Assembly: GCA_951406725.2 (NCBI GenBank)
Contig: OX597821.1
Coordinates: 20,398,001-20,462,000, forward strand
Length of the DNA stretch: 64,000 nt
Direction of reading: 5' to 3'
Source of the DNA: Octopus vulgaris
Taxonomy: Eukaryota
Shown: positions 3,601-58,279 of the stretch, piece after piece
Position numbering within the stretch: position 1 is the stretch's first letter
Layout: every line of letters starts with the position of its first letter
The notes under the pieces: model-generated
Databases searched by the model: none
What the model was told of the DNA's origin: nothing
What the model saw: the letters and a program-made list of their open reading frames with translations, nothing else
Position numbers and translations under genes: made by a program

Positions 3601-4600
3601 AATAATCATAATATTAGGGAGTAAATCCAAGCTTACAGGGAAAAATTAGATTTGGGATTAAATCTAATTTCACAGTATAAATATAAATATAAATATAAAT
3701 TAAATTAGAGATAAAACCAATATTAGGCAAATCAAACAGTGAAAAACATAAAACAAAACATAAAAATAATAAATATAATATACAAAATATATATAAAATA
3801 TAAAATTTTAAAATTTCAATTATTTAAATTTAAAATTTAAATTATTAATTTATATTTATAATTTTTATTTTTATTTTTTATTTATTTATTTATTTATTTA
3901 TTTATTATTATTATTATTATTATTATTATTATTATTATTATTATTATTATTATTATTATTATTATTATTATTATTATTATTATTATTTTTAAATTAAATA
4001 TATATAACTATCAAAATGTATCAAAATTTTAATATAAGATAAAATGTAAAACTACTACGTACGTTTCATGCCCATAACCTAATTCGAATTACGATAAATT
4101 AAATTCAATTAATAATTTAAATTATGGTTATAGTCAATCTTCAGGTTAAAGATAATAGTTAAATAAATAAGCAAATATATTTTTAAAATATTTTTTAAGA
4201 AATAAATAAAATAATGATTTTACTTATAAAAAACTCTATTATCAATGATTATATCATACAATATAATTATAATGTTAAATATTAATTTTGAAGGTAAGAA
4301 TAGATAGAAAATGTAATTATCTATTCAGATATAATATGTCTTTAAAAAAACATTATAAACTCACGAATAACCTAATCTCAGTTATAGTCAATATCTAATT
4401 ACCTAATTATTTAACAAAAAAGTAATCAAAAAAATAATCACTATTCATATTATTAAATTTAAGTTCAAATCAAATAATTATAAAATATTTGAATAACTAA
4501 ATTATCAATAAATATATATAAATAAATATAAATATAAGAATTAAGATCTAAAATTAAATTAATGCTTTTAAATATATTTCCATTGTATTCAAATACAAGG
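3601..4600 (-). mobile_element. Very AT-rich non-coding element with hammerhead-like motif (Penelope pLTR or retrozyme-like)
   Basis: Homologous in reverse to about 45180-45960; terminal 120 bp shared with 15262-15375; abuts (TA)n. Confidence 0.65.
4053..4147 (-). ncRNA. Type I hammerhead ribozyme-like motif, long stem II
   Basis: CTGAAGA-TTGACTATAACC...GGTTATGGGCAT-GAAAC-GTAC-GTA on the minus strand; stem I is weak. Confidence 0.65.
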
Positions 4601-5622
4601 GAAATTTTCCTTTTTTTGTCTGTCTGACTGTATCTCTCTCTCTCCCTCTCTTACCTTTGTGAATGTTCGTTAGTAGGTAGTAGCAGATCTAAAATAATTC
4701 TTTTAGATCTGCTACTACCTATTACCGAACCTTCAGAAAGCATCGATTGCCAAGCTATGCTGTCGTCAGAGACACAGACGCAAAATCGTATACTGATATA
4801 TATATATATATATATATATATATATATATATACACATACATATATATATACACACACACACGCATACACTTCATACGCACTTTCTGACAAGTTGTGGTGT
4901 TCCTGAGCACTGTATACAACAATTTCATTATATTTATTATATATTATTTAAATTTTAAGTAGCCACGTTCTTTAATCGGTAAATTCGCTGCGGTAATTTC
5001 AGCGCGCCAAAATGAAGCCATTTGAAATAGACTCTGATACATAATTGGCGGAACTTTACAGACGTTCTCTTTTGAGAACGCCTAGTTCTATGAATTTTGC
5101 ATTCCTGCAAAGACTTCACTGATGAACTATGGACGATCGCATTAGTGACCGTTTGTAGCGAAAACTGAGATATGAAATTTATTGCCAAGTTTTGGTTCTT
5201 TTCATTTATCTTGCGTGCTTACGATCTAGCGGTTGCTGAAATTTCTTTAGAACACAGTCTTCGTGGTAATGCGATCTAGCGTCTTTTATACAATAATAAG
5301 TCGACCTTAGTTGTTATTCTTATATATGTAATATAATTCATAGTCTTCGGATGTTTTTAAGTATGATAGGCTATTGGTTTAAATTGATATTAATTGATAT
5401 AATATCAATTTCTACACTCATTATTTAACCTATATATATATATATATATATATATATATATATATATACCACAACCACACAATCATGAAAACAAATATTA
5501 TGAATCAGATATTTATTAGGTTAATTTATATATATATATATATATGTATGTGTATGTGTTCTATATATAAATATGTATATATAATTCATATATGCAAAGT
5601 GTATATAACTGTATTTATATAT

Positions 5623-5922
5623 ATCACGTGATCACGTGACCGCCCAGTCCATCAGATGTTGTTACACATCGCTGGTCACAATGCGTTCGCATTGTTTTAG
5701 CCTTCGAATGACGCCACCCCGCTGGCTAAGCGAGCAGGCCAACAGAAGAAAGAGTGGGAGAAAGAGTGGTGAAAGAGTACAGCAGGGTTCACCACCCCCT
5801 GCCGGAGCATCGTGGAGCTTTTAGGTGTTTTCGCTCAATAAACACACACAACGCCCGGGAATCGAAACCGCGATTCTGCGACAGCGGGTCCGCTGCCCTA
5901 ACCACTAGGCCATTGCGCCTCC
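5623..5922 (-). mobile_element. tRNA-derived SINE with family A head/core and a different 3' tail
   Basis: 5740-5922 matches the reverse complement of the family A head/core; 5623-5740 is unrelated to the family A tail. Confidence 0.85.
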
Positions 5923-6476
5923 ACACACACACACACACACACACACACACACACACACACACACACACATATATATATATATATATATTCATATATATAT
6001 GAATGTATGAATAGGTTTGTATATGTGTGCATATGAATTCTTGTGTGGGTAGGACTTGTTTCCTCAACGATTTAATGTCTAATTCCCCGAAGGAACTGGT
6101 GTGTCTGAGATTATAATAATGGTATCACGTACTCGAATCGAACCAACGGACGGGTGGTCGATAATTCAAATTCTCATCTGTATATTTCCGAGCATAAGGC
6201 AGTCAATTAAAGGGGAAGAAATACACATGAATAGTGTCTTTGTAATCAAAATGTTAGATCTAAAAGTCAATTTCAGTCACTCGGTGTAATGATAATGATA
6301 TTCGCATGCATAAGTATCAATTTACATACAGGCACTCATGCAGCTAGTCGTAGATTACACTCTCGCAGATGCTCATGCATAAATACAAAGACACACAGAA
6401 ATACACCTGTACCTGCCCCTCTATACTTCTCTGTTTCTGTCTGACTGACTGTCCCATCTCTGTGTATCTCTCTCCG

Positions 6477-6854
6477 TATATATATATATATATATATATA
6501 TATATATATATATATATATATATATATATATATATATATATGTGTGTATATATATATATATATATGTATATATATGTGTGTATATATATATATATATATA
6601 TATATGTGTATATATATATATATATATATATATATGTATATATATATATATATATGTATATATATGTGTATATATATATATATGTATATATATATGTATA
6701 TATATGTGTATATATATATATTATATATATGTGTATATATATATATATATGTATATATATATATATATATATATATATATATATATATACATATATATAC
6801 ATATACATATATATATATATATATATATATATATATATATATATATATATATAT
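6477..6854. repeat. Long imperfect (TA)n microsatellite, representative of dozens in the window
   Basis: Direct reading; source of spurious poly-IY ORFs. Confidence 0.98.
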
Positions 6855-7074
6855 GGACATGTATAAATATTGTATTGTTGAAAGTATTATAGAAGTCTTT
6901 TATTGCGAAATATATTATAAAATGTCAGACAATGAAGAAAAATAAAATCCTCCCCCCATTCTATTCACTCTCTTGGGAATCAAAACGTTCAAAATATTGT
7001 TAGAGGTACGCAAACATATAAACTATATATACCGAGAAAGAAAAATACTTTATGAAGAAACTAAACAATGCGAA

Positions 7075-56234: not shown

Positions 56235-56619
56235 AGGCGCAGGAGTGGCTGTGTGGTAAGTAGCTTGCTACGCAACTACATGGTTCCGGGTTCAGTCCCA
56301 CTGCGTGTCATCTTGGGCAAGTGTCTTCTGCTATAGCCCCGTTCCGACCAATGCCTTGTGAGTGGATTTGGTAGACAGAAACTGAAAGAAGCCTGTCGTA
56401 TATATGTATATATATATATGTATGCGTGTGTTTGGTTGTGTGTCTGTGTTTGTCCCCCTAGCATTGCTTGACAACCGATGCTGGTGTGTTTACGTCCCCG
56501 TCACTCAGCGGTTCGGCAAAAGAGACCGATAGAATAAGTACTGGCCTTCCAAAGACTAAAGGTGGTGTTTCAACATAGCCGCAGTCAAATGACTGAAACA
56601 AGAAAAAGAGTAAAAGAGT
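56235..56619 (+). mobile_element. SINE family B with small internal deletion
   Basis: Head and tail present; lacks the GTCCCGGGGTCGATTTGCTC segment. Confidence 0.9.
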
Positions 56620-56890
56620 ATATATATATATATATATATATATATATATATATATATATATATATATATATATATATAATTATTGAAGTAGATAAATGAA
56701 TTATCTAATCACGGATAATTCAAAAGATAACCGACTCCTGGGTAGCAAAAATCACAACAGAAAAAGCACGGTTGAGGTTACGACCCTGGGGCCTAAAATC
56801 CGTGCCTTAGTGCGGAAATTTGAAGTTTTATATATTTAGTGTAGGAAGAAATGGAGCTGAACGAAGATTTAACAAAATTCCTTTTTATTA

Positions 56891-56974
56891 TTTTCTACAT
56901 ATGTTTCAAAGGCTGCAACGTCCCTAATTCGGATTGAATAAGGAGTCCATTTTGCAGCCTTTTCTTCGGGTAAA
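56891..56974 (-). ncRNA. Hammerhead-like motif with long stem II inside an element at about 56678-57748
   Basis: TTTAC-CCGAAGA-AAAGGCTGCAA...TTGCAGCCTTT-GAAAC-ATAT-GTA-GAAAA. Confidence 0.7.
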
Positions 56975-57764
56975 TCCAGGAACTTAATTCTCCAACAAAA
57001 TGCACAGCAAGCTTTTCGACAAACGCTCACGAGGAGCCCATGGAATAAATGGCACAAACTGTTTATCAATATGCGTTGACGCCAGGCTGGGTGAAAGCCG
57101 ACGAGAAAGTCCGTTGAGATAATTCAAGGTCAAAATCCGGTTAACAGAAGGGGAGTACAGGAAAATCAAAGAGTGTGAATGTATTCTGTATGAGTGGTGT
57201 TAATATTTGAATTGTTTTAAGAATGAGTGCTAGAGTGTTTGAGTGTGAGAAATTGCTTTCATGTATGTGTGTGTGCGTCTATATATGTGTGGCAGTGTGT
57301 TTAGAAGGCAGCAAGGGAGAGAGATATAGCTGGTATTAATGGTCAAGCAACAGAAAAGACTGTGTCTGTGTGTTCGTCTGTAACCAGTTGATAGAGAGAG
57401 GGGGGGTGTCAACAATGGTCATGGCAGTATACAGTGCTGCTGACAGGGATGTCAGCAGTTCTAGACAACTAGGAGTTCTTACACTAACAGGGGAGTGATA
57501 TCCCCTTACAAATTTAATTCAAATTTTTTTCATTTTCTTAGGAAATCAAGGGGTTAACTATATTAGACTTCAATGGTATGAGAGAAATGTATGCCGTTTC
57601 CAGTGTGGGCATCTGAAAGTATTTTGCACAATCGAGTTAACAAGGTGCCCTCGGGCGAACAGAATATGAAAGAGTTCCGAGTTACAAAGAGCACATATTT
57701 TTTTGCCATTATCAAACGGTAAAGACACCGATTTCCTACACTAAATATATATATATATATATAT

Positions 57765-58279
57765 ACATAGTCAAAATGCGATAAAATAAATTATTATCGC
57801 CGGTGATCTAGCACAAAAGACATTTTAGCCATAGGCCATATGTTATTCATATATAAGTACATTAAAAGGCTTCCAGAAGAAGAAGTGAGTACTAGATACA
57901 CAAAAGTTGGATAAATTTAGTGAAAGGAAAATTAAAAACCTTTACAAACTCGGTTCATCTTATCCTGCAGTTTCGTCTTTTTCATCATTAAATGTAATTT
58001 ATTGCTCAGGCAGATTCATCAGTAAGACGCCTGTTATTCAAGAGTCGCATATCAATAGAAGCATGTGCGTCTCTACTAATTTGCTATCTCTAACTTTTCA
58101 GATCATTGCGCAGACGCAGAACGTACCCGACAAACAAAGGGGGTTCTGGTATATTGTCTAACGGTCAAAATTTATCGAGAAATACGTAAACATAGTCAAA
58201 ATGCGATAAAATAAATTATTATCGCCGGTGATCTAGCACAAAAGACATTTAAGCCATTTATCCAACTTTTGTGTATCTA
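57765..58279 (-). mobile_element. Retrozyme/pLTR-like unit: 425-bp period, 67-bp terminal direct repeat, 24-bp inverted end, internal hammerhead
   Basis: 57766-57832 equals 58191-58257 with one mismatch; 57893-57916 is the reverse complement of 58256-58279; (TA)n on both sides. Confidence 0.8.
57956..58029 (-). ncRNA. Hammerhead-like motif with cleavage triplet apparently mutated (GGA)
   Basis: CGTCTTA-CTGATGA-ATCT...AGAC-GAAAC-TGCA-GGA-TAAGATG. Confidence 0.7.

Follow-up and report, generated by a model that had tools for sequence, protein, structure and literature searches.

The 64,000-nt stretch of Octopus vulgaris DNA analyzed here (the window) carries hammerhead ribozyme motifs throughout. 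The initial annotation had listed 14 coordinates as about a dozen distinct motifs, and each of the 14 holds a type I hammerhead motif, in some cases in damaged form. While every site is real, the 14 sites amount to 12 insertions from 11 repeat families, with 4053 and 45722 belonging to one family and 15441/15531 and 15903/16211 forming inverted pairs, and six of the copies are damaged fossils. The eight intact-looking copies have C3 at 4144, 15479, 15535, 15988, 16217, 18098, 46906, and 55486; those at 4144 and 46906 have one stem of just 2 bp. Six of the 14 copies depart from the CUGAnGA/GAAA/UH type I core consensus. Two motifs, 2734 (+) and 52459 (-), were found beyond those listed, the former outside the span (3,601 to 58,279) that had been annotated.

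The leftmost motif is a worn copy of a U3-A8 family (2728..2771, +), 84% identical to a copy in locus L380. A canonical-core hammerhead at 4053..4152 (-; C3 4144, predicted cut after 4056) has a 70-nt stem II and a 2-bp stem I. Its family, with 1,087 candidates, is represented again by a damaged copy at 45718..45810 (+; 45725), in which G5 is changed to A and stem II measures 60 nt; stem III in this family alternates between two palindromes, ACGTACGT in 11 of 30 copies and ACGATCGT in 9 of 30. The intact hammerheads at 15439..15485 (-; C3 15479) and 15529..15575 (+; C3 15535, predicted cut after 15569) are inverted partners within a short non-coding repeat family of 1,145 candidates, whose best copies are 98-100% identical and most of whose genome copies are such pairs. 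A second intact pair, both with a 61-nt stem II (15903..15994, -, and 16211..16302, +, the latter with C3 16217 and a predicted cut after 16296), occupies the inverted arms (15806-16070 and 16135-16399) of an insertion from a 586-nt tandem retrozyme family. The hammerhead at 18092..18138 (+; C3 18098) has a U4C core and lies in a ~360-bp repeat, which is found also as short tandems and flanking an ORF1-only cassette.

Damage takes a different form in each of the following copies. At 20398..20434 (-; 20428), a member of a U3-A8 covariant family has a changed A6 and a 4-nt deletion in stem II; at 28506..28594 (-; 28588), a member of an old family with a 58-nt stem II has C3 changed to U with G8 kept; and at 57955..58029 (-; 58022), U16.1 is changed to G in a family with a 41-44 nt stem II and a 7-bp stem I, whose palindrome is intact in 14/14 relatives. 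A classic minimal hammerhead at 37786..37834 (+; 37792), nested inside a decayed Penelope-like element (PLE) reverse transcriptase (RT) remnant (37276-38961, +), has changes in stems III and I; its family (1,965 candidates) has an extra A after A9 and a 4-nt stem III. The motif was restored in relatives of all four copies (14/14 for the 57956 family, 10/14 for 28508, 11/14 for 20400, with a U3-A8 core, and 10/14 for 37787).

The remaining motifs lie near PLE sequences. The intact hammerhead at 46872..46912 (-; C3 46906), with a 2-bp stem II and a GCAA loop, is carried by a young PLE within its 3' repeat; 15/15 copies are identical over 96 nt, and the family and its sister together give 5,015 exact matches. 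The 3' end of the corresponding ORF is present at 47953..48546 (-) and shares 97% identity with residues 381-578 of the frame in a full element (L226). A minimal hammerhead-like motif with an A6U core (52426..52465, -; C3 52459) lies downstream of a decayed PLE RT (53403-54482, -). The U4C-core hammerhead at 55446..55492 (-; C3 55486, predicted cut after 55452) comes from a PLE subfamily that is young and autonomous, and lies in its 3' repeat; the last 72 codons of this PLE (the GIY-YIG end) are found at 55989..56204 (-) and match residues 704-775 of the frame in L314 at 96% identity. The motif at 56890..56975 (-; 56969), with a 55-nt stem II, is also in a PLE 3' repeat, and its CCGA core and stem I mismatch are both off the family majority.

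A strict descriptor requiring at least 3 bp in stems I and II and a self-complementary stem III matched the window six times, compared with a mean of 0.2 and a maximum of 3 in 40 block-wise dinucleotide shuffles; the composition-matched shuffle that the initial annotation had named as its refuting control thus upheld the motifs. A looser descriptor gave nine matches (shuffle mean 0.98, maximum 3), while one tighter on the first stem II pair proved too strict, retaining three. In a random 400 kb of the genome, we found 17 strict matches, which extrapolates to roughly 100,000 hammerhead folds genome-wide. The proposed dense, diverse population is a property of the genome. Loci enriched for the query families (1.24 Mb) gave 338 strict matches, which fall into 41 clusters; the window, at 6 vs. 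2.7 strict matches per 64 kb, is about twice the average (Poisson P ~0.06) and not a hotspot.

As had been predicted, standard models miss these motifs. At the gathering score, Rfam reported no hammerhead in the window, its sole match being U6, and at the E-value threshold no hammerhead was among the matches listed (150 of 274). The helix sizes here differ from those of the canonical fast type I Rfam form (6-bp helix I, 4-bp helix II, and a loop-loop contact). A repeat search of the window returned mostly microsatellites, and of the hammerhead repeats it recovered the inverted arms alone.

The long stem II noted in five families of the window was confirmed at 41-70 nt, reaches 85 nt elsewhere, and is not exceptional in the genome (49-80 nt in 8 of the 17 random strict matches). 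Rfam and short-helix descriptors consequently miss about half of the motifs here, and animal hammerhead counts are likely underestimates. The palindromic character of stem III was also borne out, in some cases with G-U pairs; when the palindrome was not demanded in the random sample, it was still present in 7 of 11 matches, including 5/5 of those with a CUGA core. Compensatory changes occur in all three stems (three superfamilies and the stem III switch described above). Among 43 distinct motifs of the 18094 superfamily, both sides have changed in 10 of 13 pairs, C3-G8 covaries to U3-A8, and 90% of cells are paired, compared with 24-53% in slid controls. Long stem II pairs are kept through double changes at 9/12 and 4/9 predicted pairs in two superfamilies. 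Since these sets consist of related sequences picked by motif, the shuffle counts for covariation are not probabilities. The covariation suggests selection on the fold. In silico, the stem III motifs fold as dimers only, which agrees with the earlier suggestion that the palindrome would suit dimers. Monomer folding was weak, with z below -2 for just 1 of 11 window motifs (56891, z -4.2) and uninformative values for the other 10.

Family majorities gave a canonical core in 8 of 11 families, U3-A8 in one, and U4C in two. The CCGA core had been noted in three copies and is present in all three; it is the family majority only in 18094 (84/98 exact matches) and 55447 (1,161 exact copies vs. 358 CTGA). 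We rejected it as a trait common to three families, given that 27 of 29 relatives of 56891 have CTGA and CCGA is a minority variant there. Because best-match lists overstate CCGA, exact counts were used. U4C is the majority core in four separate lineages, one of them a young PLE subfamily with intact ORFs: the 55447 U4C subfamily, which is younger than its CTGA sister judging by median pairwise differences (1.2% vs. 4.4%; 19 and 20 copies) and about three times as numerous. In contigs from sequencing runs, the core was mostly U4 in organism C (21,216/27,660 depth), U4 only in one organism A run, and C4 in one organism B contig. The A6U family (52459) has 15,211 exact matches, and 96 of the first 100 of them have U6; position 7 takes any of the four letters, but the stems are kept. 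When a single core change was permitted at any position, U4C accounted for 166 and A6U for 12 of the 427 matches from loci enriched for these families, and no other change marked a convincing family in that set. G5, G8, A9, G12, A13, A14, and the C3-G8 pair are fixed across families. PMC3088659 reports that U4C lowers activity in vitro while still supporting viroid infectivity and that a change at position 6, A6C, gives low activity.

Three families, 55447, 46873, and 56891, sit 3' of PLE ORFs, with same-strand PLE protein matches upstream in 16/30, 7/15, and 2/30 loci, respectively (tblastn). In L314, three CCGA motifs spaced 4,271 bp apart accompany a 775-codon frame that scores RVT_1 (E 7.6e-7; 29.5 bits, cut-off 29.6) and GIY-YIG (E 2.7e-5); the 55447 family thus encodes the RT and C-terminal GIY-YIG endonuclease of a PLE, and its frame is intact in 9/9 full-length loci. 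L226, the full 46873 element, has a 578-codon frame between two hammerheads spaced 3,352 bp apart; this frame has no Pfam match, and it was assigned to PLEs by its architecture and by visual inspection of motifs. In L314, L226, and L228 (55447 and 46873 families), the ORF lies between direct pLTR repeats that each carry a hammerhead, and inverted 5' copies are also found. Hammerheads in PLE-type repeats are a known arrangement (Cervera and De la Peña 2014, 2020), and the inverted pairs and solo copies seen here match those described for PLEs in PMC4209133 and 10.1101/2021.04.23.441226, supporting the link. The PLE or retrozyme origin initially proposed is shown for 4 of the 11 families. The other seven, short repeats with 0-1 upstream matches each within 1.5 kb to the two query proteins used, are likely PLE-derived, probably as non-autonomous offspring.

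The 15903/16211 family has a 586-nt period in several arrays; in L227, five 586-nt units each contain one motif, and no reading frame there reaches 200 codons. The family is identified as a retrozyme by this tandem, non-coding arrangement with a single hammerhead per unit. It has a 6-bp stem I, and a 26-nt tag gives 160 exact matches. Contigs from 4/4 probable RNA runs (RNA by guess) contain tail-to-head joins, which do not separate circles from tandems and so provide no evidence of expression or of circles. One hammerhead per unit was also considered for the ORF1-cassette tandem arrays and rejected, with no matches in L382, L383, L384, L386, L387, or L393; hammerheads, where present, flank the array. 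A homolog search with the cassette protein returned nothing at E 0.001.

We think it probable that the motifs are type I hammerheads of PLEs and their likely offspring that cut slowly and only upon dimer pairing, and the RNA fold likely counts for more than fast cutting. PLE reverse transcriptase would start copying at the RNA 3' end and so mostly produce truncated or inverted solo copies, which would subsequently decay, and selection would be limited to the few source elements. It would keep the fold and most of the core and tolerate rate-lowering changes, such as U4C (four times) and a stem II of 41-85 nt, which likely removes the loop 1-loop 2 contact. Such changes may be tolerated because most insertions would be templated by uncut or re-joined RNA; cutting would seldom be needed, likely only for the occasional release of a unit from a read-through or tandem transcript. 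Cleavage itself would be slow and confined to occasions when two RNA copies pair via the palindromic stem III. PLE minimal hammerheads have been described as cutting weakly and only as multimers (PMC4209133), and PLE hammerheads cut in the presence of the PLE protein (PMC11167929). Hardly any copies begin at the predicted cut site (0/30 in the CCGA family; 1/30 in the retrozyme, within chance), which, together with A6U in a 15,211-copy family, suggests that the predicted cleavage is slow or optional. Slow dimer cleavage is itself weakened by the A6U family, the cut-site result, the seven families unlinked to ORFs, the weak monomer folding, and catalytic mutants that had no effect on PLE insertion in vitro (PMC11167929).

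A somewhat unlikely alternative is that the fold persists because it serves as a cis-acting RNA signal, for stem III dimerization or PLE protein loading, with cutting dispensable and U4C and A6U near neutral. The retained stems and free position 7 of the A6U family, the success of the U4C subfamily over its CTGA sister, the scarcity of copies starting at the cut, and the insertion-competent mutants would all be expected of such a signal. The fixed core positions, however, are those that catalysis requires, and more kinds of core change should have become fixed if cutting were irrelevant. We regard it as quite improbable that the motifs are instead fully active, fast ribozymes in vivo, with contacts or proteins compensating for long stem II and U4C and with abundant circular RNAs. 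Canonical coral retrozymes do cleave at ~0.8 per minute and form circles (PMC7229834), and the 586-nt family offers tandem units, a 6-bp stem I, and the tail-to-head joins; those joins, however, would arise equally from DNA or a transcript with units in tandem, the motifs show no identifiable loop-loop contact, and the starts of copies do not coincide with the cut. Chance matching in AT-rich, repeat-rich DNA is negligible and already refuted, for although a loose descriptor is expected to match about once per window and six copies miss the consensus, strict matches far exceed those in shuffles, family majorities restore the broken positions, and compensatory changes are present.

Slow, dimer-dependent cleavage remains our preferred reading, and we tentatively raise a broader possibility. 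Some 100,000 folds in dozens of PLE-related families, selected for fold and not for fast catalysis, may represent a series of natural mutants (U4C fixed four times, a 15,000-copy family with A6U, stem II enlarged to 41-85 nt) pointing to the PLE hammerhead as a protein-dependent or non-cutting RNA signal, and the site just upstream may be a repeated landing place for an ORF1 cassette that encodes protein but lacks an RT and is exchanged between unrelated hammerhead repeats. The role of the hammerhead in endonuclease-bearing PLEs has been called unclear (10.1101/2021.04.23.441226), and cutting was unnecessary for insertion in one in vitro study (PMC11167929). One intact PLE has sister subfamilies with different letters at core position 4, which supply matched natural pairs for testing this role, and the very large A6U family is further natural test material.

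Like the minimal hammerheads of PLE pLTRs (Cervera and De la Peña 2014, PMC4209133), those described here have type I order, a short or absent palindromic helix III, and a short helix I; they share the extra base after A9 (37787, L237, and A6U families) and the U3-A8 covariant (20400), and in both cases genomes contain many families, mostly solo copies, and opposite-strand pairs. In contrast, CCGA occurs in 0/56 of the Fig. S3 representatives and helix II plus loop is at most 23 nt there, whereas a 41-85 nt stem II is common here (8/17 random matches), with U4C and A6U each the majority form in its families. Cephalopods are absent from the table and alignment rows of that paper. Within the literature searched, which lies outside Repbase and most subscription papers and was partly available, CCGA cores, very long stem II, its compensatory changes at 41-85 nt, A6U, and cephalopod PLE hammerheads are unreported.

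Metazoan non-LTR retrozymes (Cervera and De la Peña 2020, PMC7229834; Li et al. 2026, 10.64898/2026.07.22.740005) resemble the 586-nt family: their units are non-coding and arranged in tandem, with a single type I hammerhead apiece, helix III depends on dimers (predicted here), and they are related to PLEs. They differ in unit length (220-350 nt in the passages of PMC7229834 consulted) and in having a 4-bp helix with loop-loop contacts in place of a 61-nt stem II, and some have demonstrated circles, while the 586-nt family is known from sequence alone. The 55447 family resembles Neptune/Nematis-type PLEs (Craig et al. 2021, PMC8557442) in its RT, CX4CXXC linker, and C-terminal GIY-YIG and in its tandem and inverted insertions in (TA)n, a likeness of architecture that includes a zinc-finger-like linker noted by eye. 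Unlike them, it carries a U4C hammerhead, and its upstream 454-codon frame overlaps the RT frame in -1; an optional frameshifted ORF1 is mentioned in the Fig. 1 legend of PMC8557442. Finally, the same core change is known from a U4C viroid hammerhead (cited in Perreault et al. 2011, PMC3088659), reduced in vitro and sufficient in vivo; rare there, U4C is the majority form in four retroelement lineages here, in hundreds to thousands of copies.

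All 14 sites that had been called as hammerheads were readable as type I motifs (stem I, CUGAnGA, stem II, GAAA, stem III, UH, stem I). With a strict descriptor (stems I and II of at least 3 bp, self-complementary stem III), the window, which is 35% GC and rich in microsatellites, gave 6 matches, compared to a mean of 0.2 and a maximum of 3 in 40 shuffles made within 300-nt blocks; a looser descriptor gave 9 matches vs. 0.98 in shuffles. The "about a dozen distinct" motifs of the initial annotation correspond to 12 insertions but to 11 families; the motif at 45722 belongs to the 4053 family and has a mutated G5. 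Two further motifs were found at 52459 (–) and 2734 (+). Eight window copies look intact and six are damaged. We searched the genome (2.8 Gb, 227 contigs) with one copy per family, obtaining from at least 148 to at least 1,965 candidates each, and examined the best 15–30 loci per family. Relatives of the damaged copies restored U16.1 at 57956 (14/14), CUGAnGA at 28508 (10/14) and a minimal stem III at 37787 (10/14), and 11 of 14 relatives of 20400 carried a U3-A8 core. We conclude that the window motifs are real and that their class was correct in outline, the claim being partly overstated for the window.

Other features of the window were also recorded. At the gathering score, Rfam matched no hammerhead in the window, its sole match being a full-length U6 snRNA copy (3456–3560, –; 94 bits), a gene or retrocopy with microsatellites on both sides. 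A short frame at 43156–43548 (+) resembles, by eye, the end of a Tc1/mariner transposase. An abundant dispersed repeat of ~250 bp, likely a SINE, is present in six copies that are 86–92% alike (24652–24926, 28750–28961, 33435–33723, 46525–46769, 52001–52294 and 56204–56456).

Forty 10-kb stretches taken at round coordinates as a random sample contained 17 strict matches (14 insertions), compared to 0–3 in five shuffles, which extrapolates to about 110,000 strict motifs genome-wide (~60,000–180,000). The population is dense, as had been proposed, but as a property of the genome, the density of the window being about twice the average. Its diversity was borne out by 338 strict matches that formed 41 clusters in 1.24 Mb of loci enriched for the query families. 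Published counts include >6,000 for a coral, belonging to 16 families, 126,247 for axolotl (PMC7229834) and ~9,000 for Xenopus (PMC4209133). A stem II of 49–80 nt was present in 8 of the 17 random-sample matches.

CCGA proved to be a family trait at 55447 and 18094 but not at 56891, where U4 was found in 27 of 29 relatives. Exact counts for the 55447 family were 1,161 CCGA vs. 358 CTGA, and linkage of the core letter to a loop letter defines two subfamilies. Since the CCGA subfamily is younger (median pairwise difference of 1.2% among 19 copies, vs. 4.4% among 20 CTGA copies) and U4 predominates in a related organism, C4 is likely derived. The 98 exact matches of the 18094 family comprised 84 CCGA, 9 CTGA, 4 CCAA and 1 CAGA. 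Another minimal-hammerhead family, encountered in the random sample (L237:1995–2035, L269–L293), with a deletion-bearing remnant in the window at 9989–10082, had 9,258 exact matches, the first 100 being 71 CCGA, 24 CTGA, 3 CCAA and 2 CAGA. Among the first 100 of 5,015 matches for 46873, a sister family carried CCGA in 16/17 copies vs. 0/83 for the main form. When one change was allowed at any core position, U4C and A6U alone gave convincing families. The A6U family (loci L396–L405) is minimal hammerhead-like and has 15,211 exact matches; the first 100 showed U6 in 96 and A6 in 2, while position 7 was free, each of the four letters occurring there. Its window copy (52426–52465, –; C3 at 52459) lies downstream of a decayed Penelope-like element (PLE) reverse transcriptase (RT).

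The fold itself has been conserved. Within the 18094 superfamily, 43 distinct motifs were compared: both sides had changed at 10 of 13 pairs, 90% of cells paired (vs. 24–53% in slid controls), and 12 motifs had switched C3-G8 to U3-A8. Inside the CCGA branch, the core-adjacent pair of stem I varies from A-U to G-C. Long stem II pairing was kept through double changes, chiefly core-proximal, at 9/12 and 4/9 pairs (12 sequences each). The sequences in each set are related, so the figures indicate that structure was retained but cannot be read as probabilities. The palindromic nature of stem III was upheld, with 7 of 11 random matches palindromic when no palindrome was demanded; in silico, 11 stem III motifs gave no fold as monomers and paired as dimers at –4 to –16 kcal/mol. 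In the 4053 family, stem III was ACGTACGT in 11 of 30 copies and ACGATCGT in 9.

Using two query proteins and 1.5-kb flanks, we found motifs 3′ of a PLE frame at 16/30 loci for 55447, 7/15 for 46873, 2/30 for 56891 and 0–1 loci for each remaining family. One 55447-family locus (L314) is built of 4,271-bp tandem units. In each, a single motif accompanies a 775-codon frame that scores against RVT_1 and GIY-YIG; this frame is open in 9/9 full-length loci of this PLE. At the same nine loci (L314, L344–L351), a ~450-codon frame overlaps the RT frame by ~90 nt in the –1 frame. Seven consecutive T lie inside this overlap, a candidate site of programmed frameshifting, where one fold revealed no stimulating structure. 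At L226, a 578-codon frame, in which a Pfam scan found no named domain, lies between two motifs 3,352 bp apart. Structurally, the 15903/16211 family is a retrozyme, its tandem units of 586 nt each containing one motif. The remaining families consist of repeats a few hundred bases long, frequently in inverted pairs and in (TA)n, a pattern also described for truncated PLE copies (PMC4209133; 10.1101/2021.04.23.441226); we infer a PLE origin for them. Remnants of the RT or endonuclease of other PLE families, now decayed (24–36% identity to the queries), lie at 37276–38961 (+), 53403–54482 (–) and 18463–18798 (+), the first enclosing the 37787 repeat.

A 1.8-kb cassette (L336–L340, L352–L393) bounded by a 13–17 nt direct repeat lies inside some copies of the 18094 family. 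The ~450-codon frame of the cassette encodes an RRM-like region and a CCHC knuckle, with no RT, and its atlas features resemble ORF1p with very high confidence. A search with a hammerhead-linked copy as query returned 10,070 candidates; by eye, the 3′ end was findable in 27 of the best 30 loci, followed ~27–52 nt on by a hammerhead core in 21 (several repeat families), by a further cassette, after a short duplicated stretch, in five, and by neither in one. Of the 30, the 23 loci with a directly following repeat were compared and the 7 lacking one were left out: cassettes 98% identical sat on repeats aligning at ~53%, whereas repeats 90% identical carried cassettes that were 73% identical. This disagreement indicates that the pairing arose more than once. 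Tandem arrays of the cassette also occur, and those of a more distant lineage are poly(A)-tailed and lack hammerheads. The cassette resembles a non-autonomous element that derives from a LINE and prefers one kind of landing site; a literature search found none like it. Beside a cassette array, L395:301–5800 (–; contig C4) contains LINE pieces in which, by eye, ORF1 looks similar and ORF2 is of the endonuclease type, a candidate autonomous partner.

How these RNAs are used was approached through copy boundaries, with queries taken from beyond the predicted cut on its downstream side (30 copies per family). No 55447 CCGA-family copy (0/30; L406–L435) began at the predicted cut; six of the 30 shared a 5′ boundary 71–82 nt upstream of it (~40 nt before C3), which may mark a start of transcription or a preferred template switch. 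A comparable boundary lies ~30 nt before C3 in the 15531 family, and among 30 retrozyme copies a single one begins 4 nt past the cut. Minimal PLE hammerheads are described as cutting weakly, as multimers (PMC4209133), and that of an Anolis PLE as cutting solely with protein, with mutants still inserting (PMC11167929). U4C lowers activity in vitro, yet leaves enough for a viroid, and A6C has low activity (PMC3088659). From sequence, we favor, with some confidence, cutting that would be slow, assisted by a dimer or protein, and required occasionally; both the existence of an A6U family and the positions of the copy boundaries argue against a need for it at each insertion. A hammerhead fold kept as a non-cutting RNA signal seems unlikely, since G5, G8, A9, G12, A13 and A14 are fixed, which argues that the chemistry still matters. 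Fast, canonically active hammerheads are a very improbable reading.

PLE and retrozyme hammerheads are a known class; the CCGA-majority, A6U and long-stem-II forms are new variants, of which our literature search, with most subscription journals outside its scope, found no report. An A6U mention in PMC11662667 concerns twister, and a 2026 retrozyme preprint (10.64898/2026.07.22.740005) deals, in its opening part, mainly with vertebrates. These variants offer a direct test of what hammerheads do in PLEs. Unlike several families described here, none of the 56 motifs in Fig. S3 of PMC4209133 carries CCGA. The longest helix II region in that figure is 23 nt and the "long helix II" of PMC13725137 is 6 bp, compared to the 49–80 nt of stem II in 8 of the 17 random-sample matches.
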